Assembly (NCBI GenBank): GCA_963664815.2
Contig: CAXXHB010000003.1
Location: 1,920,001-1,984,000, forward strand
Direction of reading: 5' to 3'
Length of the DNA stretch: 64,000 nt
DNA from: Spirochaetota bacterium
GTDB taxonomy: Bacteria > Spirochaetota > UBA4802 > UBA5550
Below, piece by piece: positions 44,088 through 55,034 of this stretch. The notes beneath the pieces were generated by a model. The model did no database searches. It was not told where the DNA came from and worked only from the letters and a program-made list of their open reading frames with translations. The translations under genes were made by a program, and so were the position numbers. Every line of letters begins with the position of its first letter. Position 1 is the stretch's first letter.

Positions 44088-44146
44088 ATATAACTCTCAG
44101 AATAGTATCTCAATCTTCTCTGGTTGAGATACTATTCAAGTTGGCC
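44088..44146 (-). mobile_element. attC-like site (distal end of array)
   Basis: ATATAAC...GTTGGCC flanking a perfect 14-bp stem GAATAGTATCTCAA/TTGAGATACTATTC. Confidence 0.6.
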
Positions 44147-44520
44147 GGCTTTTTTATACTATAACTTTGACACAGCTCATTTTGACAGGACCAATACAAT
44201 CAGTGCATCGCCTGTTATATGCCGCCAGGTAGTCCCTGTGAGCCTGTCTAAGTGCAAAAATACTGTTTGCCCGACAGAACTGCTTGAGCAACAGCCAAAC
44301 ACAATATTAATGGATTTTAAATTACCGGATTTATAATTGCAAGAATAATTCGTATGTTGAAATTTGAATAAATAAACAAACGCATCTTTATAACAACCAA
44401 TGTATCTACTTTTAAAACACTGTTAAACGGCATTCCCAAGAATAAATTATCAGTATTTCTTAATCATCAGAATAAAAGTATCCCTTCATGGTCTTTTTAT
44501 AGTTCCATAATCATAAGATA

Positions 44521-44710
44521 TTAATATGCAGATAATAATCTACAACCGCTCTGCTTCGCCGGAGGTGACCAATACCTCACCGGTTCAGGAATCTCTTTTA
44601 CAACAAGCCTTCCGGTTTTGCATGCAGGGCAGCATGAAACGCGACAACTATCTTGGCACATAGGGCAACAGCCTTCTTTTTGTTTCTGTGTGATAGAATT
44701 CCGAAGTACT
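44521..44710 (-). pseudogene. C-terminal remnant of an IS91-family transposase
   Basis: CPACKTGRLVVKEIPEPVRYWSPP resembles the C-terminal CPxC...PP tail of IS91-like transposases. Confidence 0.45.
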
Positions 44711-44712
44711 AT

Positions 44713-45288
44713 CAGGGCAAACAATCTTGCCCTTTGCCGGATGTTTCCCGGTCAGCTGTCAGCCCCTGGCGGAGCAGTATGAGCTGAGCAAAGAGCTTCC
44801 TGAGGATACAGCTTTCCTGTTCTGGAAATATTTCAGGATTGATATAACTCTCTGCAGGGAGTGCGAAAAGGGACACATTCATTATATCCATGGCCTGTCG
44901 ACTTACGGTTAGCTGTTATAAAGAGTATAGCTGTACTTCACAAATTTAAAAAACTGTTTCATAGAGAGGATAAGTATGTCCGGAGATTTTGAGATTTTGC
45001 ATAAAATCGCCATTCACAGTCTATCAGATAACTGTAGAAATAATTATTTTACGGGATTATTATTTTTTCCGGTAAGATCATCGGATTTTTACTGTATGTT
45101 ATTTCAAAGATCGGGATAAAACGGTATTCAAATTCCTAAATATACTGTTCGATCCCAGTGGTTTCGTCCAACAGAGTCTTAACATAGCTGCTGTCTGAAG
45201 ATTGAAATCATCTGTTTAATGTTTTTATACCTCTAATAAAGATTAGCGGTTTTTTTGAGACAACTACGTTAAGACTTCTATAAGTTAT
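44713..45288 (+). repeat. Copy 1 of about 570-bp duplication (IS91 3' end plus attC-like site)
   Basis: Near-identical to 47362..47929 with a 7-bp and a 1-bp insertion. Confidence 0.93.
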
Positions 45289-45317: not shown

Positions 45318-46541
45318 TTAACTATTGTTAAATTTTAACAAACCAGAATTATCATGGAATAAATTAATTATTTCGTTCGTCGTAATTTTTTTCAATAAAA
45401 AAGCTTCAAAAATTTCAAGCAGACTTTTCGTCTCAATTATCAAACTTTCATTTCTTTTTGCTAACTGGATTTGTTTTTCGTGAATTTGTTCGCGTTGTAG
45501 TAACTCTTTATTCCTTTGATGACAAATAATTAACAATGATTTTTTTGTTTTTGTTGAAATACTTTCACTTATTTTATCAAGATAATTCTGATAATGAACA
45601 TCCAATTGAGAAATGTGTTCGGATTTAACGTTTGTTGATACGCCCTTAATTTCACCAATAAAATTAATCTTCTCCAGTTCTATCAAAAAATCTTCATTTT
45701 TATTATCAATAAATCCTGTTAAATCACAATTTAATATTTGTTCAAGAATTTCAAATACAACATTAACCAAATCATTACCGTTTAAATAAAGAATCGATTT
45801 ATATTTATTGTTTCGATTAAGAAAATCATTTGCTTCTTGAATATTATTTTGTGCATTTTCTATTATTGAAATATTTTCTTGTATTGTTGATTTATGTTTT
45901 TTGTCATCATAAAAAATTACATCATTGATCCAAGATGGTATATTATCTTTTATTTTTATAAGGTTTAATAAATTTAAAAAATCGAATAATTCTTCAGTAT
46001 TATTAATTGAAAGTGTTGTTAAAATAATGTCATCAACTTCAATGGTTGTTGCTTTATTACTTAAAATTGATTTTGTTAAAACAATATGGTCAACATTAAA
46101 ATAAAAATCAGAACTAATAGTATGTGTAGATATTTGTGTTTGTGTTCTTTCAAACGTTAGTGATGTATAAGGTAACTTTAAATATTTAATTAGAATATTT
46201 ACTTCCAATTCATGCAAAATATTTTTTAGTTTACTACGACTCATATACTTACCAGAGAAATAATTATATTCAAAATTGATATCCTGTGGATAAATATATA
46301 TGATTTTTGTGTCTTGTGAGTTGTTTATCATCGTCGATAAGTGTATTAAATCGTTCGCTATATTGACTGAGTTATAACTATTCTTCGTATTACTCCATAT
46401 ATTGGAACTCCTTAAGTCAATTATATTGATTTGATACATATCAAGTGAGTCGGGATTATTAATCTCATTAATTGAAATATCATCTGAGTCAAAAGAATTA
46501 TAATTGCTTCGAGTAAGTAATTGTATCAATTTTTTATTCAT
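45318..46541 (-). CDS. Cassette protein with C-terminal PD-(D/E)XK nuclease-like domain
   Basis: Very AT-rich; coiled coil then EDFLIE...FIGEIKG...HISQL. Confidence 0.6.
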   Translation of the reverse strand: MNKKLIQLLTRSNYNSFDSDDISINEINNPDSLDMYQINIIDLRSSNIWSNTKNSYNSVNIANDLIHLSTMINNSQDTKIIYIYPQDINFEYNYFSGKYMSRSKLKNILHELEVNILIKYLKLPYTSLTFERTQTQISTHTISSDFYFNVDHIVLTKSILSNKATTIEVDDIILTTLSINNTEELFDFLNLLNLIKIKDNIPSWINDVIFYDDKKHKSTIQENISIIENAQNNIQEANDFLNRNNKYKSILYLNGNDLVNVVFEILEQILNCDLTGFIDNKNEDFLIELEKINFIGEIKGVSTNVKSEHISQLDVHYQNYLDKISESISTKTKKSLLIICHQRNKELLQREQIHEKQIQLAKRNESLIIETKSLLEIFEAFLLKKITTNEIINLFHDNSGLLKFNNS

Positions 46542-46556
46542 AATAATTTCCTAAAA

Positions 46557-46974
46557 GTCTGGTAGGTCGGGGAGTTTGCACCCCCTTTCCCCCATAAGAA
46601 CCGTACGTGAAAGTTTTACCACAGGCACTTCCTACGGTCGCCCTCCATACGGCTCAAGCCGTCTAAAGCTGATTATACAACCAGCCGTTGTTATCTGTTT
46701 GTATTCCCATTTTTCTATAGCAGAAATAATCAGAATCTTCTTTTAAAAATGGGTTCCTGTCAAGACTTATCATTCTGTGCCGTACAATTTTAATGTGTCC
46801 CGCAGTAATGAGAATCTCCTCTTCAGAGCAGAAAGTCCAATCCCTGTTTCCTATGCGTTTCCAGTACCGGTTTTTAAGCCATAAAGAATTTTTCATCGGG
46901 TGCCTGAATCTGCCCCATCTCCATAGAGCCTGAAAAAGAACAGTATCGGGATTTTTAAAGGCTTCCTTTGACAT
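46557..46974 (-). mobile_element. 3' remnant of a group II intron (RT/maturase C-terminus plus domains V-VI)
   Basis: LWRWGRFRHPMK...WTF...IVRH...NPF; DV GAGCCGTATG...CACGTACGGTTC; DVI ending CCGACCTACCAGAC. Confidence 0.88.
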
Positions 46975-47554
46975 TCAGGAAAATGCTTTTATTCCACCTC
47001 GGCAAAGAACTTAAAAACGGTTCTTTAAAGACACCTGACGGTATTGAAGATATTGCAAAGCTTTTTAATCAGCTTGCGCATATTCCATGGGTTGTAAATT
47101 CCCAGCCTCCCGGCAAAGGTAAAAAGAAACCGGTAAACATAGTCCGCTATCTTTCGAGATACGTTGCTAAAAGTGCAGTCAGTGATAAACGGATACAGAA
47201 AGCGGAGAATGGAAATGTTTACATCCGCTATTACAATAGAAAAAGGAAGCAGAGTAAAATGGAGGTTGTTACAGAGATTCAATTTATGAAACGGCTGGTG
47301 CTGCATATTCTTCCTAAAGGATTTAAAAAGTCCGGTTCTTCGGTTTTATGGCAAACCGTAACAGGGCAAACAATCTTGCCCTTTGCCGGATGTTTCCCGG
47401 TCAGCCCCTGGCGGAGCAGTATGAGCTGAGCAAAGAGCTTCTTGAGGATACGGCTTTCCTGATCTGGAAATATTTCAGGATCGATATAACTCTCTGCAGG
47501 GAGTGCGAAAAGGGACACATTCATTATATCCATGGCCTGTCGACTTACGGTTAG
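46968..47554 (+). pseudogene. IS91-family (Y2) transposase, 5'-truncated and frameshifted
   Basis: VRYLSRYVAKSAVSDKRI, FMKRLVLHILPKGFKK, then frameshift to VRFFGFMANR...CRECEKG. Confidence 0.85.
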
Positions 47555-47929
47555 CTGTTATAAAGAGTATAGCTGTACTTCACAAATTTAAAAACTGTTT
47601 CATAGAGAGGATAAGTATGCCCGGAGCTTTTGAGATTTTGCATAAAATCGCCATTCACAGTCTATCAGATAACTGTAGAAATAATTATTTTACGGGATTA
47701 TTATTTTTTCCGGTAAGATCATCGGATTTTTACTGTATGTTATTTCAAAGATCGGGATAAAACGGTATTCAAATTCCTATATATACTGTTCGATCCCAGG
47801 GGTTTCGTCCAACAGAGTCTTAACATAGTTGTTGTCTGAAGATTGAAATTATCTGTTTAATGTTTTTATACCGCTAATAAAGATTAGCGGTTTTTTTGAG
47901 GCAACTACGTTAAGACTTCTATAAGTTAT
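47362..47929 (+). repeat. Copy 2 of about 570-bp duplication
   Basis: Near-identical to 44713..45288; identity ends at GTTAT. Confidence 0.93.
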
Positions 47930-47931
47930 AT
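47807..47931. mobile_element. attC-like site
   Basis: GTCCAAC-aga-GTCTTAACATAGTTG...CAACTACGTTAAGAC-ttctataa-GTTATAT; internal ACCGCTAAT/ATTAGCGGT hairpin. Confidence 0.72.
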
Positions 47932-48199
47932 GAAGGCGGCGCGCTGAATATGAAAAGTCGGACGAAGACAGGACGTCTGAGGCCGTTGAAAAATCTATTT
48001 GTTTTGTACTAAAAGAAACAAAATTTTTTATATCTTGACAAATAATTGGTTTATTCATTATATTATGCACCTATAAGTGTTAATAAATATGCCATATCTA
48101 GAGTTTTTTGTCTAGTATCTATTAATTGTTTCAGTTGCTTTTTGAATAATTAGAAAGCCTTCTTTTTTGAAATTAAATTGTTTAAATGAAAATATTATT

Positions 48200-48934
48200 A
48201 TGAATGACGAAAATATCTTAAAATTGCCAAATATTAACAAAATAAAATACCAAAGTAATTTTATTCGTTTGGCTGTATGTGAATTGCGGTTTCCAACTCT
48301 ACTTGAATTGGAAACTAAAGAGCCTGCAAAATTTCAAGCAGCAATAAGAAAAGAATACCCATATTATACAAAAGGTAAAAACATAAATATTGAACCCGGT
48401 AGTGAAAACCCATCTCTTGAAACTGTTTACAATTTTATTTCAAAAGATCAGAGTTGGACGATTGGTCTTAAACCTTCATCCATATCGCTTGAAACTAAAG
48501 CATATAAAAATTTTAGTGAATTTCTAGAACGCTTATTAAAAGTAATTGATAAGGTAAAACCAATTATTGATACAGATTTTTTTACTCGTGTTGGTTTGAG
48601 ATATATTGATACTTTACCAGTAAAAACTGAGCCAGTCAATGAATGGATTAATCCTGAGCTTACAAACCAACTTATCAATGGGGAACTCGGTAAGCCCGGA
48701 AGTTATTGGCAAGAAATTGTTGGAAATACTTTTTGTGGTAAATATACATTTCGACATGGAATAAAAAATAACAATCATAATGATTATATTCTAGATTTTG
48801 ATTTTTATGATGAAAATGTAGAATTAAAAGATATTGGAACAAAAATTAGAAATTTACATGATGAGAGTATTAAATTATTCTTTTGGTCTCTTGGAAAAAA
48901 AAGTATAGAATATATGAATTCACAACATCAATAG
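48200..48934 (+). CDS. TIGR04255-like protein
   Basis: AVCELRFP, RVGLRYID and YILDFD motifs; start set at ATG 48200. Confidence 0.75.
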   Translation: MNDENILKLPNINKIKYQSNFIRLAVCELRFPTLLELETKEPAKFQAAIRKEYPYYTKGKNINIEPGSENPSLETVYNFISKDQSWTIGLKPSSISLETKAYKNFSEFLERLLKVIDKVKPIIDTDFFTRVGLRYIDTLPVKTEPVNEWINPELTNQLINGELGKPGSYWQEIVGNTFCGKYTFRHGIKNNNHNDYILDFDFYDENVELKDIGTKIRNLHDESIKLFFWSLGKKSIEYMNSQHQ

Positions 48935-48944
48935 GATAATAGTT

Positions 48945-49379
48945 ATGAATTTGATAACAGCAACAACTACAAAATCAGATGATATGTATAAACTGGATAA
49001 TGGTAGTTTAACAAGGTCATCATTCGATGAAATAGAAAAGGATTTGGACGATTATTCTTCATTACGAAATTGGAAGAACCAAGACCTTAAACGAACTAAT
49101 TATATAGATTCTGATGATTATATTATTGAATTTGATAAAAATAAATCAGAAGTTCAAATATCAAATGAAAATCGAATAACATTATTGGCTAGAAAGTATA
49201 TATCAGGAAAATTGTCTCTTGAAGAAGAATCTCGACTGCTTATTGAAAAAGAACGAGTTAAACAACTAATTCCACTTGTCACCATAGAAGATTATAAACT
49301 TGTTGGAGATATGCTGGCAGATGTAAAAAAAATTCAAGATAAACAAAAAGCTATCAAGGAAAAACTAAATATAAAATAA
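48945..49379 (+). CDS. Hypothetical protein (middle gene of 3-gene cassette)
   Basis: AGGA RBS, 10 bp after previous gene; disordered N-half, helical C-half. Confidence 0.7.
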   Translation: MNLITATTTKSDDMYKLDNGSLTRSSFDEIEKDLDDYSSLRNWKNQDLKRTNYIDSDDYIIEFDKNKSEVQISNENRITLLARKYISGKLSLEEESRLLIEKERVKQLIPLVTIEDYKLVGDMLADVKKIQDKQKAIKEKLNIK

Positions 49380-49383
49380 ATAT

Positions 49384-50007
49384 ATGGAACCATTCATATA
49401 TCCTCAGATAAAACATCGGCGTACCCAGACACCTCCAAAATTCAAGCGTTATCAATCATATAAAAAGTATTTAAAGGTTGAGTTTGAAAACAAGTGTATC
49501 TATTGTAGAATGCCTGATGGCTTAAAAGGAGATGCTTTTTTCGGCGTTGAACATTATAAGCCATCAAGTAAATTTAAAAGTTTAGAATGCACTTACTCAA
49601 ATTTATATTATAGTTGTAATACTTGTAACAGTAATAAAGGCAATTTTTGGCCCTCAGCACGACAATTAATTAAAAATTTATTTATTCCGAATCCATGTGA
49701 TCATATTATGATTCAACATCTTAAATACGTTGATGAGTATGTAAAGTCAAAGTCTGATACAGGAGATTTTTGCATAGAATTATTACGATTAAATGAAGAG
49801 AGTGTTGTTGATTATCGTAAATATGTAATTGATACAATAAAGATTCTTAATAAAGAACTCTCCTCTTTAAAATCTGATATAATTGAGTTTGAAAAATTAA
49901 AATTAAGTGATAAAAATAAATTAGACGAAATAAAATCAGCTATAAATGAAACAAATGAAAATATTGAAAGAATAGATAAACATATTCAACGTCTTACTGG
50001 AAAATAA
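49384..50007 (+). CDS. HNH endonuclease
   Basis: CIYC...VEHYKP...YSNLYYSCNTCNSNKG; C-terminal coiled coil. Confidence 0.88.
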   Translation: MEPFIYPQIKHRRTQTPPKFKRYQSYKKYLKVEFENKCIYCRMPDGLKGDAFFGVEHYKPSSKFKSLECTYSNLYYSCNTCNSNKGNFWPSARQLIKNLFIPNPCDHIMIQHLKYVDEYVKSKSDTGDFCIELLRLNEESVVDYRKYVIDTIKILNKELSSLKSDIIEFEKLKLSDKNKLDEIKSAINETNENIERIDKHIQRLTGK

Positions 50008-50033
50008 TTAATATTACTCTTTTTATAATTCAT

Positions 50034-50074
50034 ATTTCAGAAAAAGCGGGCAGGACGCCAGCTTTTTCTGAAAT
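50034..50074. terminator. Strong hairpin after HNH gene
   Basis: ATTTCAGAAAAAGC...GCTTTTTCTGAAAT perfect 14-bp stem. Confidence 0.55.
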
Positions 50075-50099
50075 CAGTAAAAAGTCAAGCGCCGCTTTC

Positions 50100-50197
50100 A
50101 TATAACGTTTTGCTTACCCGAAGTTGCGCGGCCTTTTGCGCAATTTGCCGCAGGCCAAGTGAGGTACTCCGAACGCAGCGGGTAAGCTTTGTTATAT
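50100..50197 (-). mobile_element. attC site
   Basis: Minus strand ATATAAC-aaa-GCTTACCCG...GGCCTGCGGCAAATT...CGGGTAAGC-aaaac-GTTATAT; complementary R and L boxes. Confidence 0.85.
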
Positions 50198-50280
50198 GCT
50201 GAAAGCGCGATCATGAAATGTTTTGAGCAAGCGAAGCACGGATGCTGAGCTTGTACTAACGGATTATTATTAAATTTCCC

Positions 50281-50952
50281 TTATAATGGTTCCCATGTTT
50301 TAATAGGTTCTTGAAATTCACCATCAATTTCATCCGGTTTAAACGTGAATAAATAATTTTGCAACCATAAGTATTTATCTCTAATTTGTACTTTGTTTTT
50401 TATGTCACTAGAATTTGTTTTTACCATATTTTTTAAAACATCATATATTTTTTTCCAATTAGTATTATCAATAATATGCAATTGATAATTATTACCGTCT
50501 CTTCTTATTAAATTTTTTTCTTGAAGTGTGGAAAAAGTACCTTTATTTTTTTCAATCTCAATTATATTTGGGTTAATTAAAATTCTGGGATATGTTGCTA
50601 TTTGCTCTAACTGATAAGCTTCTGATAATGCTAAACTATAAGTTATTGTATCGTTTTCAAAATGTTTATTAAAGGATGTTCCTCCTCTGATTAACAATCC
50701 ATTTTCCATAAAATTAATAAATATATTTTTCAATATTTCAAGAAAATATATGACATTGTTAGTATCGTTATAAGCAATGAATAATGAATCCGATATTGAT
50801 TTATAGCTTATATCCGTTTTGCTAAAACCTTGTAGATATTGAAAAGATGATTGTAGCTTTTCTTTAAATAACTCTGTATTTTTTCTTTCATCATCTTCTA
50901 TAAATTGCTTATAACCAAGTACATCTAAAAAAGCATATAATTTATAACTCAT
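50281..50952 (-). CDS. Nucleotidyl-cyclase-like hypothetical protein (cassette)
   Basis: AFLDVLGYK, SISDSLFI, LIRGG, AYQLE...PRI; overlaps ParA stop (ATGA). Confidence 0.6.
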   Translation of the reverse strand: MSYKLYAFLDVLGYKQFIEDDERKNTELFKEKLQSSFQYLQGFSKTDISYKSISDSLFIAYNDTNNVIYFLEILKNIFINFMENGLLIRGGTSFNKHFENDTITYSLALSEAYQLEQIATYPRILINPNIIEIEKNKGTFSTLQEKNLIRRDGNNYQLHIIDNTNWKKIYDVLKNMVKTNSSDIKNKVQIRDKYLWLQNYLFTFKPDEIDGEFQEPIKTWEPL

Positions 50953-51977
50953 ATTGTTAACGACTCAACAATTTTTTTTATTTCATCTTTATATGCAATT
51001 AATTTTGTATTATATGTGTCCCAGACTTGACCATAAAACTTTTGATTTATTTCTGATAAATATGTTGAATCGTCTTGGCTGATGTCAAATATAGCTTTCC
51101 CTACGATTTGTGCAACTGGAAGTAGGGGCCCAAGATCTTCAACTTCTGATATTATTGGTTTGTTCCCTATTTCTTTAGAGTTGGATTTTAAAGAACCATC
51201 TTTGATACAAGACTTCAATTCGTCGGTTATTTTATTACTCCATACATCATATACCTTTTTAGCTTTTCCTTGATACTTTTGATATTTTTGGGAGATGGAG
51301 CCTAAAAATATTGGAAAGGATTTAGTTACTTCAATTCCGAAAGGTGATAATGTATCATATATTAGTTCATCAGTTTTTTCCCATTCATTAAAAAGATTTT
51401 TTAATACTTTGATTGCTAACATAGAAAAACGATCAGGACTGACTGGGATAAAAAATCCATCCGTTGCGAGAAAAGCAAGTCTTGTTAATGCACCACTACT
51501 GGGACCAACGTCTGTGATTATATAATCATATTTATTTCTATAGTCATCTATAAGTCTTTTAAAAGAAACATATGTATTTTTTTCATTAACTCTGCTTGTA
51601 ATTGCAAAATCAATTGCTGATGCAAAATATTGTTCTGCACGTGCACTAAACTGGAAATCGCCACGTATTAAATCTAAGTTTGGATATAATTTAGATTTGC
51701 TTATTACGATTTTTGAAGTATCAATTCGATGTGATGCTCCATCTATTCGGTCTTGAAAGGCGTCTAATATTGATGTTCCGGGTAAATCTTTTTCGGGATT
51801 ATCCATTATTTCAGTATTTGAAGCGAAAAATAATTCTGTTAAATTACATTGTGGATCTGCGTCTATTAGTAATATTTTTTTACCAAGAATTTTACTCAAA
51901 TAAACTCCAACATTAAAGGCAGTAGTTGTTTTTGAAACACCACCTTTATTATTATAAAATGTAATCGCCTGTATCAT
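50949..51977 (-). CDS. ParA/Soj-family ATPase (cassette)
   Basis: NNKGGVSKTT, IDADPQCNLT, YDYIITDVGP. Confidence 0.9.
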   Translation of the reverse strand: MIQAITFYNNKGGVSKTTTAFNVGVYLSKILGKKILLIDADPQCNLTELFFASNTEIMDNPEKDLPGTSILDAFQDRIDGASHRIDTSKIVISKSKLYPNLDLIRGDFQFSARAEQYFASAIDFAITSRVNEKNTYVSFKRLIDDYRNKYDYIITDVGPSSGALTRLAFLATDGFFIPVSPDRFSMLAIKVLKNLFNEWEKTDELIYDTLSPFGIEVTKSFPIFLGSISQKYQKYQGKAKKVYDVWSNKITDELKSCIKDGSLKSNSKEIGNKPIISEVEDLGPLLPVAQIVGKAIFDISQDDSTYLSEINQKFYGQVWDTYNTKLIAYKDEIKKIVESLTI

Positions 51978-52049
51978 AGCTTCTCCTTCTCTTTGTACAT
52001 TTTTATAAATGAGGCCACGGATGGCCGATTAAAAAGTTTTTGCGCTTTT

Positions 52050-52135
52050 TGCATATAACTCTTTTCTATCCGAACAAACTTTCGCATAGTACAGGAAAAT
52101 TCTGTTAAAACCGAAAGAAAGTACGTACAGTAAAG
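52050..52135 (-). mobile_element. Probable attI site immediately downstream of integrase
   Basis: Minus strand ...CGGATAGAAAAGA-GTTATATGC at first cassette start; matches GCATATAAC at that cassette's end; no attC-type hairpin upstream. Confidence 0.6.
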
Positions 52136-53209
52136 CTATATATCCAGGGGACTCTTGATGCTCCTGAGTTTACCCGTACTTACATGTGTATAAATCATCG
52201 TGGTATCAGGACTTTGATGCCCTAATAGTTCCTGTATATATCGTATATCTATACCCTGTTCAAGCAGATGTGTAGCAAAACTATGCCTTAAAGAGTGAAC
52301 TGTAACTGCTTTTTTTATACCGGCTTTTACTACAGCGCGTTGAAAAATATTCTGGACAGATCTCCCTTTGATGTGGCTCCCATCCTCCTGCCCTTTAAAA
52401 AGCCAGTTTTCAGGATGATATATCTCAATGTAAGATTTTAAAAGGGCAAGAAATGTTTCGGACAGAAGAGTGGCACGATCCTTCCTCCCCTTTCCGCACC
52501 TTAAATTGATGGCACCCCTGCCAATGTCTATATCGCTCAGCTTTATTGTAACTGCCTCGTTTAGCCTCAATCCGGCGGAATAAATTAATGCAATAATTGT
52601 TTTATGCTTCAGATTTTCTATACTTTCAAGTAAAGAATGAACTTCAGGTTTACTTAAAACAACAGGAAGCTTTTTATCCCTTTTAGGCGGCGTAATTTCA
52701 TAAATAAAATCTCTCTTTAATACCTCACCATAATAAAATCTGAGAGAATTGATCATCAGCTGCACTGTCGCTGCGCTTAGATTTTTTTCTGAAACTTTGG
52801 AAGAAAGAAATACCGTTATATCCTGCTGTATAATGCTTTCAGGTTTTTTTTCAGAAAAGACAAGAAGATCTGCATTATAGTGAAGGTAGCTTTTAATTGT
52901 GCTGCGGCTGTATTTTCTTATTATAAGTTCATCTTTAAGCGCTTTAAGAAATTCATCCGGAAAGTCATTGTTGCCGTTGGCAGGTGTGGCATCACTGCCA
53001 ATGTATACACAATATTTCAGATTAACTACTGTTTCAAGCAGTCTGTCAAAGTTCTCTTTCCTGTCAGGAATATACCATATTTTTCCTGCATTATCCCATC
53101 TTCTGCCTGATATACCTCTGATTACTGTAAGCAATTCCTGATTATACATGAATTTTACAGCAAGATGAGAATTGTCAGACGAGGCTATATGAATTTCATT
53201 TTTATTCAT
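52136..53209 (-). CDS. Integron-associated tyrosine recombinase (HARP-like N-terminus, SAM-like domain, no IntI insertion)
   Basis: YSRSTIKSY, LPVVLS, YSAGLR, GKGRKDR, HSLRHSFATHLLE, LLGH, TTMIYTHV, SPLD; adjacent to attC array. Confidence 0.9.
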   Translation of the reverse strand: MNKNEIHIASSDNSHLAVKFMYNQELLTVIRGISGRRWDNAGKIWYIPDRKENFDRLLETVVNLKYCVYIGSDATPANGNNDFPDEFLKALKDELIIRKYSRSTIKSYLHYNADLLVFSEKKPESIIQQDITVFLSSKVSEKNLSAATVQLMINSLRFYYGEVLKRDFIYEITPPKRDKKLPVVLSKPEVHSLLESIENLKHKTIIALIYSAGLRLNEAVTIKLSDIDIGRGAINLRCGKGRKDRATLLSETFLALLKSYIEIYHPENWLFKGQEDGSHIKGRSVQNIFQRAVVKAGIKKAVTVHSLRHSFATHLLEQGIDIRYIQELLGHQSPDTTMIYTHVSTGKLRSIKSPLDI

Positions 53210-54864: not shown

Positions 54865-55034
54865 TTCTGCTTTGCCCCTTCCGGGCGCCCGAGCGCAGCG
54901 ACAAAGTACCCTTGGGGTAGGTGCGGGGGCTGATAAGTCCAGGTTGCTGAAGGTATACTATACAGACAGTTCTGCCTTGCCCCTTCCGGGCGCCCGAGCG
55001 TAGCGACAAAGTACCCTTGGGGTAGGTGCGGGGG
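54865..55034. repeat. Two 65-bp GC-rich direct repeats (REP/MITE-like)
   Basis: TTCTGC..TGCCCCTTCCGGGCGCCCGAGCGYAGCGACAAAGTACCCTTGGGGTAGGTGCGGGGG at 54865 and 54970. Confidence 0.85.

Follow-up and report, generated by a model that had tools for sequence, protein, structure and literature searches.

The 64,000-nucleotide (nt) stretch of a Spirochaetota genome analysed here (contig CAXXHB010000003.1 of assembly GCA_963664815.2, positions 1,920,001 to 1,984,000; hereafter the window) encodes an overlapping gene pair consisting of a ParA-like ATPase and a protein with the fold of class III nucleotidyl cyclases. The pair fits the kind of system that Li, Burroughs and Aravind describe as ParA + PAACC (ParA-Associated cNMP-Cyclase, where cNMP stands for cyclic nucleoside monophosphate) and predict to be an immune effector system (bioRxiv, 22 Oct 2026, 10.64898/2026.10.19.760177; statements on this preprint refer throughout to the portion available to us). 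We favour, with a probability of roughly 60%, a ParA-PAACC conflict module in which the ParA protein serves as an ATP- and DNA-dependent switch that gates a nucleotide-forming effector, leading to abortive defence. A preliminary description made from the letters alone had proposed a candidate new two-component system; since the preprint defines ParA + PAACC, the pair is not new in that sense. Two features go beyond the available portion of the preprint, namely that the pair is packaged like a cassette, next to a recombinase without the insertion of IntI1, and that the partner of the ATPase appears to lack the canonical Asn/Arg pair.

The two genes share an ATGA in which the stop codon of the ATPase gene overlaps the start codon of its partner, an arrangement that makes translational coupling likely, and a Shine-Dalgarno-like GGAGAAGCT stands ahead of the ATPase gene's ATG (Table 1). 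Together they form a discrete unit of ~1.95 kb, bounded by a GTTATATG core site on one side and by an attC-like hairpin on the other, beside the gene of an IntI-related recombinase. The open reading frame (ORF) listing for 50198-52059 contains no third gene between the flanking repeats; the remaining ORFs of at least 50 amino acids (aa) are three antisense frames of 63-76 aa inside the two genes. Pfam scans of the genes neighbouring the pair returned no ParB-type match. The coordinates, the ATGA overlap and the lack of ParB and of a separate effector gene, all given in the preliminary description, are borne out by the ORF listing, the sequence and Pfam, and the motifs it had singled out are present in the 223-aa translation (AFLDVLGY at residues 7-14, KSISDS at 51-56, IRGG at 88-91 and YPRI at 121-124). 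With a G+C content of 0.29-0.31, the pair is poorer in G+C than the contig (0.38).

ParA ATPases are best known as motors of DNA segregation. The 342-aa ATPase matches the Pfam families AAA_31 (1.1e-28) and CbiA (3.7e-13), and no NCBIfam model passes its cut-off, the top one being ParA_partition with 62.7 bits against a required 180. Its AlphaFold2 (AF2) model, with a predicted local distance difference test score (pLDDT) of 92.7, aligns best with 3pg5_A (Z 27.6), McdA (26.7), ParA (25.9), the delta protein of pSM19035 (24.1) and MinD (22.4). The alignments with 3pg5, McdA, ParA and MinD span 232-273 residues and identify a ParA/MinD fold; BcsQ (Z 20.2) and FlhG/FleN (~20) are further structural neighbours. 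DIP2308 of Corynebacterium diphtheriae (PDB 3pg5), an uncharacterised ParA-like protein from structural genomics, is also the nearest solved sequence (E 2.5e-18). It is of similar length and has the NNKGGVxKTT and DxDPQCN motifs in common with the window ATPase; a literature search under 3PG5 found nothing bearing on this pair.

Ten positions of the ATPase are invariant in 40 homologues (K11, G12, G13, V14, K16, T17, D39, D41, Q43 and D156). The deviant Walker A motif with its signature lysine K11, the DxD motif (D39/D41) and the Walker B residue D156 are intact and place the protein in the ParA/MinD clade of SIMIBI P-loop NTPases. The two markers that the preprint gives for its ParA proteins, Val in Walker A (ConB1) and Gln two residues after DxD (PriB1), are present as V14 and Q43 and belong to the invariant set. 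Because the Walker A, DxD/Gln and Walker B residues do not vary among the 40 homologues, the protein looks, as judged from its sequence, like an active ParA-type switch. The family counts 2691 proteins at E≤1e-10 among 6181 candidates.

The 223-aa partner has no match in Pfam, NCBIfam or PADLOC. PF00211 was found at E≤10 in none of 21 close homologues, the Pfam gathering threshold not being reached, and gave sub-threshold matches in 2 of 55 distant members of the family. At E≤0.001 the partner has 28 homologues, and all named ones are annotated "hypothetical protein". The family as a whole is large (7673 cluster representatives at E≤0.001 and 2402 at E≤1e-10), yet it is without a Pfam or PADLOC model. 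A tblastn search of a phage collection with the partner gave no match. When the close alignment was compared with the PDB by sequence, an actin-capping protein and bL20m came up, and both were set aside as chance-level matches.

Structure is more informative. The AF2 model of the partner (pLDDT 88.4; predicted template modelling score 0.87) consists of a class III cyclase domain at residues 1-162 and a helical C-terminal extension, and its elements follow the order beta-alpha-alpha-beta-beta-alpha-beta-beta-alpha-beta, as in the class III cyclase domain. Foldseek retrieved 86 PDB chains at E≤0.001; among the matches listed, all are class III adenylyl or guanylyl cyclases. In a VIA-align comparison with ~48,000 chains, the guanylate cyclase 3et6_B aligned over 151 residues (Z 16.5, root-mean-square deviation 2.5), and the Pycsar cyclases 8jsz, 7r65 and 8jsf reached Z 14.1, 13.3 and 12.6. 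GGDEF domains scored lower (Z ~12) and over a shorter range. An 82-member partner profile searched against the PDB gave ten weak matches (E 0.13-0.78), nine of which are class III cyclases, and in these the profile's vAflDiLGF aligned with VLFADIVGF and its afSDsI with VSGDSY. In the ESM Atlas the partner falls with unnamed clusters (0.97-0.98), the nearest named one being Guanylate_cyc at 0.87, which we take as a lead only. The class III cyclase fold that the preliminary description had suspected, Pycsar cyclases included, is thus borne out by AF2, Foldseek and VIA-align.

The partner-family profile also catches a bona fide PF00211/PycC-like cyclase (E 5e-9) in another genome of the window's phylum (locus L043, 118-2226, reverse strand). 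The protein, of 702 aa, carries a PF00211 cyclase domain (PADLOC PycC 5.2e-10) fused to 2TM domains and looks like a Pycsar-type fusion of cyclase and effector.

Eleven residues of the partner are invariant in 21 aligned homologues (D10, G13, K51, S54, D55, S56, R89, G90, G91, P122 and R123). Among 82 more distant members, with 19-45% identity to the window protein, six remain so (D10, D55, R89, G90, R123 and K193). The genome has 10 PF00211 cyclase domains, and nine bona fide cyclase domains from it served for a profile alignment (hhalign Prob 1.5%, E 0.034). In this alignment D10 and D55 fall on the metal-binding Asp residues and R89 on the Arg/Gly of beta4. The two acidic motifs pointed out in the preliminary description thus coincide with the catalytic metal-binding Asp pair, in the nine-cyclase alignment as in the 82-member profile. 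Since the two metal-binding Asp residues and the beta4 Arg are kept, the partner probably binds a nucleoside triphosphate (NTP) with its metal, Mg, and nucleotidyl transfer is its most likely chemistry.

A ParA-like gene lies directly upstream of each close partner homologue examined (eight other loci), and across 8 loci no conserved third gene stands beside the pair. Whether the pair is conserved, a question raised in the preliminary description, can be answered positively for the close homologues, which are paired across phyla. In the search started from the partner, a full-length relative (30-47% identity) was present at five of eight genome loci, those of Methylobacillus, three Pseudomonadaceae and Sideroxydans, and in all five a ParA-like gene (40-51% identity) ends within a few bases of the partner start. 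The search started from ParA found 3 of 401 Pseudomonadota genomes at E≤1e-40. Two of these were new (36-37% identity), and in both a 244-246-aa relative of the partner with the same motifs directly follows the ParA gene. Nine plasmid records match the partner, two of which were examined; one of them, a Hyphomicrobiales megaplasmid, carries the pair (41% and 38.5% identity).

A broader cyclase-like profile, run on 401 genomes of the window's phylum, finds relatives in 19; none of three genomes of the same genus has one. The genes neighbouring stand-alone relatives include those for GmrSD with HEPN, an AbiEii/OLD-like ATPase with RadC, N6/N4 and Eco57I-type methylases, an NTF2 immunity protein and transposases. 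As pairing is confined to a closer subfamily and relatives elsewhere stand alone, the ParA-linked clade is nested in a far larger stand-alone family. At all seven other loci measured, the pair is poorer in G+C (0.36-0.49) than its own locus (0.52-0.58). The pair behaves like a horizontally moving accessory module.

At three Pseudomonas-type loci (L002, L003 and L023) the pair lies directly downstream of nrdB, the gene of the ribonucleotide reductase small subunit; the variant at L023 is divergent, its ParA having only 36% identity to that of the window. The place next to nrdB may be a hot spot for insertion, or the pair may be tied functionally to nucleotide metabolism. Two Pseudomonas loci (L002 2564-3907 and L004 6994-8436) have a Bro-N domain gene and an HNH endonuclease gene after the pair.

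The preprint defines "ParA-effector systems" within its ConB1 ParA assemblage and describes PAACC without ParA in restriction-modification and BREX operons and in toxin-antitoxin-like dyads. The window pair resembles this description in combining a ParA gene with a gene for a hitherto unrecognised cyclase-fold domain, in carrying the ConB1/PriB1 markers, in having ParA-less relatives beside restriction-modification genes and in its predicted effector role. Integrons are not mentioned in the available portion of the preprint, whereas the pair here is a cassette-like unit. Literature searches combining ParA, class III cyclases and anti-phage activity, or integron cassettes, phage defence and ParA, returned nothing that bears on the pair.

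Other named systems are less close. The partner resembles the PycC cyclases of Pycsar (7r65, 8jsz and 8jsf) in fold (Z 12.6-14.1), and both show defence-type genomic behaviour. It differs in lacking a match to the PycC hidden Markov model and in having an adjacent ParA ATPase in place of a transmembrane (TM) or TIR effector with a cNMP-binding domain. Class III cyclases work as dimers; the dimerisation arm of the partner, judged from motif spacing, would be ~6 residues shorter than in PycC, and the partner has an extra C-terminal helical extension with the invariant K193. Membership of Pycsar was rejected, there being no PycC match and a module of only two genes with no conserved third. With the adenylyl and guanylyl cyclases of PF00211 the partner has in common the order of elements and the Asp pair in FxDxxGF and xxDx motifs; it differs in the lack of a PF00211 match, in a VNxxxR motif that appears unconserved and in being a stand-alone protein of 223 aa without sensor domains. 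A ParABS assignment was also rejected, as the neighbours contain no ParB-type Pfam match and the partner has a cyclase fold.

We suggest that the ParA protein would act as an ATP-dependent, dimerising and DNA-binding switch that senses or sequesters invading DNA, and that it would physically restrain the cyclase-fold enzyme, or else activate it. On a trigger the enzyme may make a toxic or signalling nucleotide or drain the NTP pool, and the growth of the infected cell would then stop (abortive defence). The cyclase-fold protein would itself be the effector, so that a separate receptor or effector would be unneeded.

Several observations weigh against a ParA-PAACC conflict module. PADLOC models match none of 25 partner-family members and neither of the two window proteins, and the window family has been likened to PAACC by description. 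A literature search for PAACC in this sense returned the preprint only, in which the system is predicted. Pairing is also incomplete: no ParA-like gene stands beside three weak or partial partner matches (L006-L008), a partner relative on a B. cereus plasmid (25% identity) stands alone, and of 18 other genomes from the window's phylum none has a ParA-like gene within the 1.5-kb flanks of the relative, so that pairing belongs to the closer subfamily. The Asn and Arg of the VNlASRlE helix (alpha4), invariant in the nine cyclases, fall on the variable columns S110 and Q114 of the partner family (Prob 1.5%, E 0.034). The preprint speaks of "intact catalytic residues" in PAACC, whereas conservation in the window family extends to the Asp pair and the beta4 Arg, with variable Asn/Arg positions in this low-probability alignment (Prob 1.5%). 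A loss of the canonical transition-state Asn/Arg is likely, and because these alpha4 positions vary, cyclase chemistry as such is doubtful for the partner.

A complex prediction for the two proteins lends weak support to the module. It scores an ipSAE of 0.40 (runs 0.45, 0.38 and 0.40), and the best of three controls scores 0.00; the runs agree in at least 92% of contacts, with a partner pLDDT of at least 88. The mark set for this score is passed by 116 of 157 solved complexes and by 2 of 215 mismatched pairs, and scores at or below 0.60 hold only 18 of the 157 solved complexes together with both of the passing mismatches, so that the value for ParA and its partner lies in a weak band.

This weak predicted binding would also suit an addiction module of the toxin-antitoxin type, in which a cyclase-fold toxin neutralised by ParA stabilises the cassette region or a mobile element and does not act in phage defence. 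Toxin-antitoxin cassettes are known stabilisers of chromosomal integron arrays, and two overlapping genes in a cassette-like unit would be in keeping with such a role, as is the reading of other PAACC contexts (PanA, TIM-B) as toxin-antitoxin-like in the preprint. We nonetheless think it unlikely, since an ATPase of 342 aa that is apparently active and has invariant catalytic motifs is atypical as an antitoxin and the pair lies outside cassette arrays at 7 of 8 other loci. The addiction and abortive-defence readings overlap mechanistically, and both may be true. Signalling of the Pycsar kind, in which a cyclic mononucleotide made by the enzyme would switch on an effector whose gene lies elsewhere in the genome, appears decidedly unlikely. 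The similarity in fold to the cUMP/cCMP synthases 8jsz, 7r65 and 8jsf and the retained metal-binding Asp pair speak for it; against it stand the lack of a conserved third gene, the unconserved canonical Asn/Arg (in a low-confidence alignment) and the PADLOC PycC models, which miss the partner yet match the cyclase-2TM fusion of L043. A fixed distant receptor is itself improbable because the module moves between phyla as two genes.

Two explanations remain. In one, the ATPase has a housekeeping role and localises a second-messenger cyclase, as McdA and BcsQ do their cargo. The structural neighbours McdA, BcsQ and FlhG/FleN and the ten ordinary PF00211 cyclase domains of the genome are consistent with this, but the distribution is very patchy (3/401 and 19/401 genomes, 0/3 of the same genus), G+C is atypically low in all hosts measured, the contexts are mobile or defence-related and the location here is cassette-like, which leaves it with a slender chance. 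In the other, the cyclase-fold protein replaces ParB as the adaptor of a partition system. It would account for the ParA fold, the ParA-first operon order and the member on a megaplasmid. Yet seven of nine examples, the window pair included, lie on large contigs of 36 kb to 4.3 Mb (the others are the megaplasmid and an 8.5-kb contig), no centromere-like repeats were noted, and an invariant Asp pair of the catalytic type points to an enzyme; partition is hardly credible. The conflict module remains the reading we prefer.

The unit borders on a gene for an Xer/IntI-related tyrosine recombinase, which matches Phage_integrase (2.7e-41) and Phage_int_SAM_4 (3.2e-15) in Pfam. It passes the cut-off of NF040815 ("tyrosine recombinase/integron integrase"; 235.3 bits, cut-off 220) and stays under that of TIGR02249 (integron integrase; 220.7 bits, cut-off 265). 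The protein is 32-33% identical to IntI1 and lacks its 43-residue insertion, which we take to be the integron-specific additional domain. An assignment as IntI with the additional domain was rejected on account of the missing insertion and the TIGR02249 score.

A core repeat, GTTATATGCAAAA, sits 77 nt downstream of the recombinase stop, in an attI-like position, and recurs on both arms of the hairpin 3' of the pair (50094-50106 on the reverse and 50191-50203 on the forward strand). Folded as DNA, this hairpin reaches -29 kcal/mol (z -2.88), and none of 200 shuffles is as stable. The attC core consensus is GTTRRRY. A strict attC scan (RYYYAAC/GTTRRRY) missed the hairpin because its core is GTTATAT, and a relaxed scan found it. 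It is an imperfect hairpin with inverse core and core sites at the 3' end of a cassette, as in attC, with a core that makes one departure from GTTRRRY. A second hairpin with the same core, 6 kb further along, is a possible distal boundary of the cassette-like region, and these are the only two hairpins with this core in the 5.2-Mb genome.

The locus is integron-like in its IntI1-related recombinase, its hairpin-forming attC-like site 3' of the genes and its GTT-containing core at both boundaries. It differs from integrons in the missing insertion, the co-directional recombinase gene, the GTTATAT core and the mere two hairpins in the genome. The integron setting assumed in the preliminary description thus stands in part: the attC-like hairpins with a common core agree with it, the recombinase does not, and "attI" is an interpretation. 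That the position next to attI marks the most recent acquisition does not follow, because this claim presupposes a true integron, a reading that is only partly supported and against which stand the missing insertion, the TIGR02249 score and the co-directional recombinase gene; the order of acquisition is not inferable. At 6 of 7 other loci the relaxed scan found no such hairpin flanking the pair, which is therefore not generally packaged as a cassette.

Table 1. Features of the gene pair and its surroundings (positions in the window)
Feature	Position	Strand	Basis or remark
Class III cyclase-fold protein, 223 aa (PAACC-like)	50281..50952	-	ORF listing, sequence
ParA/MinD-type deviant Walker A ATPase, 342 aa (KGGVSKT; DADPQCN)	50949..51977	-	ORF listing, sequence
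ATGA stop/start overlap of the pair (ATPase TGA, partner ATG)	50949..50952	-	sequence read directly
attC-like imperfect hairpin 3' of the pair, 98 nt; outer arms ATATAAC / GTTATAT, inner arms GCTTACCCG / CGGGTAAGC	50100..50197		
Core repeat GTTATATGCAAAA between recombinase and ParA gene (attI-like position)	52047..52059	-	only exact match in window
Xer/IntI-related tyrosine recombinase, 357 aa, co-directional with the pair, N-terminal extension of ~85 aa	52136..53209	-	Pfam, NCBIfam
Second hairpin with the same core, GCATATAAC / GTTATATGC, 6 kb further along	44088..44220		relaxed scan

Contigs assembled from public sequencing runs cover the region. One run shows the arrangement intact, in a contig of 4122 nt that covers 47916-52037 and has zero differences. 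In a run from another study (X4), contigs stop at 50184 and restart at 50208, and two contigs continue into other sequence at 50194, within the outer core; these ends hint at alternative junctions at the outer core of the hairpin. Contig joints at 53118-53120, with short sides of 21-30 nt, were discarded as probable repeat artefacts. Two runs from two studies (X1 and X5) contain a contig in which 50207, a position just beyond the attC-like hairpin, is joined to 46556, where the remnant of a group II intron has its 3' end; the shorter side of the joint measures 53 nt. The joint suggests an intron copy beside the hairpin in part of the population.

Decayed copies of the recombinase 3' end, with stop codons, occur at C3:3699436-3699636, 1363978-1364184, 2569660-2569866 and 3590287-3590526, and some are followed by sequence like the 158-nt spacer between recombinase and ParA gene or like part of the hairpin. 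The genome also has an intact paralogue of the recombinase (37% identity; C3:3696605-3697423). Its nearest plasmid relative, on the Chryseobacterium plasmid NZ_CP041688.1 (locus L046), is 39% identical over 98% of the length and has the same N-terminal extension. It is followed by small co-directional genes, an IS110 element and a group II intron, and the relaxed scan found no attC-like hairpins downstream of it.

Between the hairpins at 47818-47915 and 50100-50197, on the strand opposite to the pair, lies a three-gene cluster (48167-50007, forward strand). Its products are a member of the TIGR04255 family (3.2e-37), a protein of 144 aa that falls in no family, and a PtuB-like HNH endonuclease (PADLOC PtuB 5.8e-22) for which no PtuA ATPase is present; the cluster may be another defence cassette. 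Further along, a direct repeat of ~530 nt (97-98% identity; 44710-45242 and 47359-47883) encloses a 407-aa gene without known function (45318-46541) and the group II intron remnant (Rfam RF00029, 46557-46657; GIIM fragment, 46663-46974), with a Y2_Tnp (IS91-like) fragment at 46968-47429. On the other side, an A+T-rich stretch upstream of the recombinase region has two G+C-rich 65-nt direct repeats, 97% identical and 105 nt apart (54865-54929 and 54970-55034).

A more far-reaching version of the gated module can be put forward, which we regard as possible though improbable. The partner would not be a cNMP cyclase at all: having lost the canonical Asn/Arg and gained the family-invariant Arg123 and, in the C-terminal helical extension, Lys193, it would form another product (a non-cyclic or unusual nucleotide, or a nucleotide adduct on a target) or drain NTP, gated directly by the ATP- and DNA-dependent dimer cycle of ParA. 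The module would be mobilised by the IntI-related recombinase without the integron-specific insertion, using the attC-like hairpins. If this is true, the pair would be the first ParA switch controlling a nucleotide-forming effector, and the locus would represent a platform for integron-like capture beyond the canonical IntI family.

The recruitment of ParA into immunity is so far a prediction, and the partner belongs to a large family that has no model of its own. The locus is a compact, intact and naturally portable 1.95-kb example on which to ask whether such a pair restricts phages or plasmids, which nucleotide it makes and whether ParA gates the enzyme. That the pair is packaged like a cassette, with a neighbouring recombinase devoid of the IntI insertion, bears on the reach of integron-type gene capture beyond canonical integrons.

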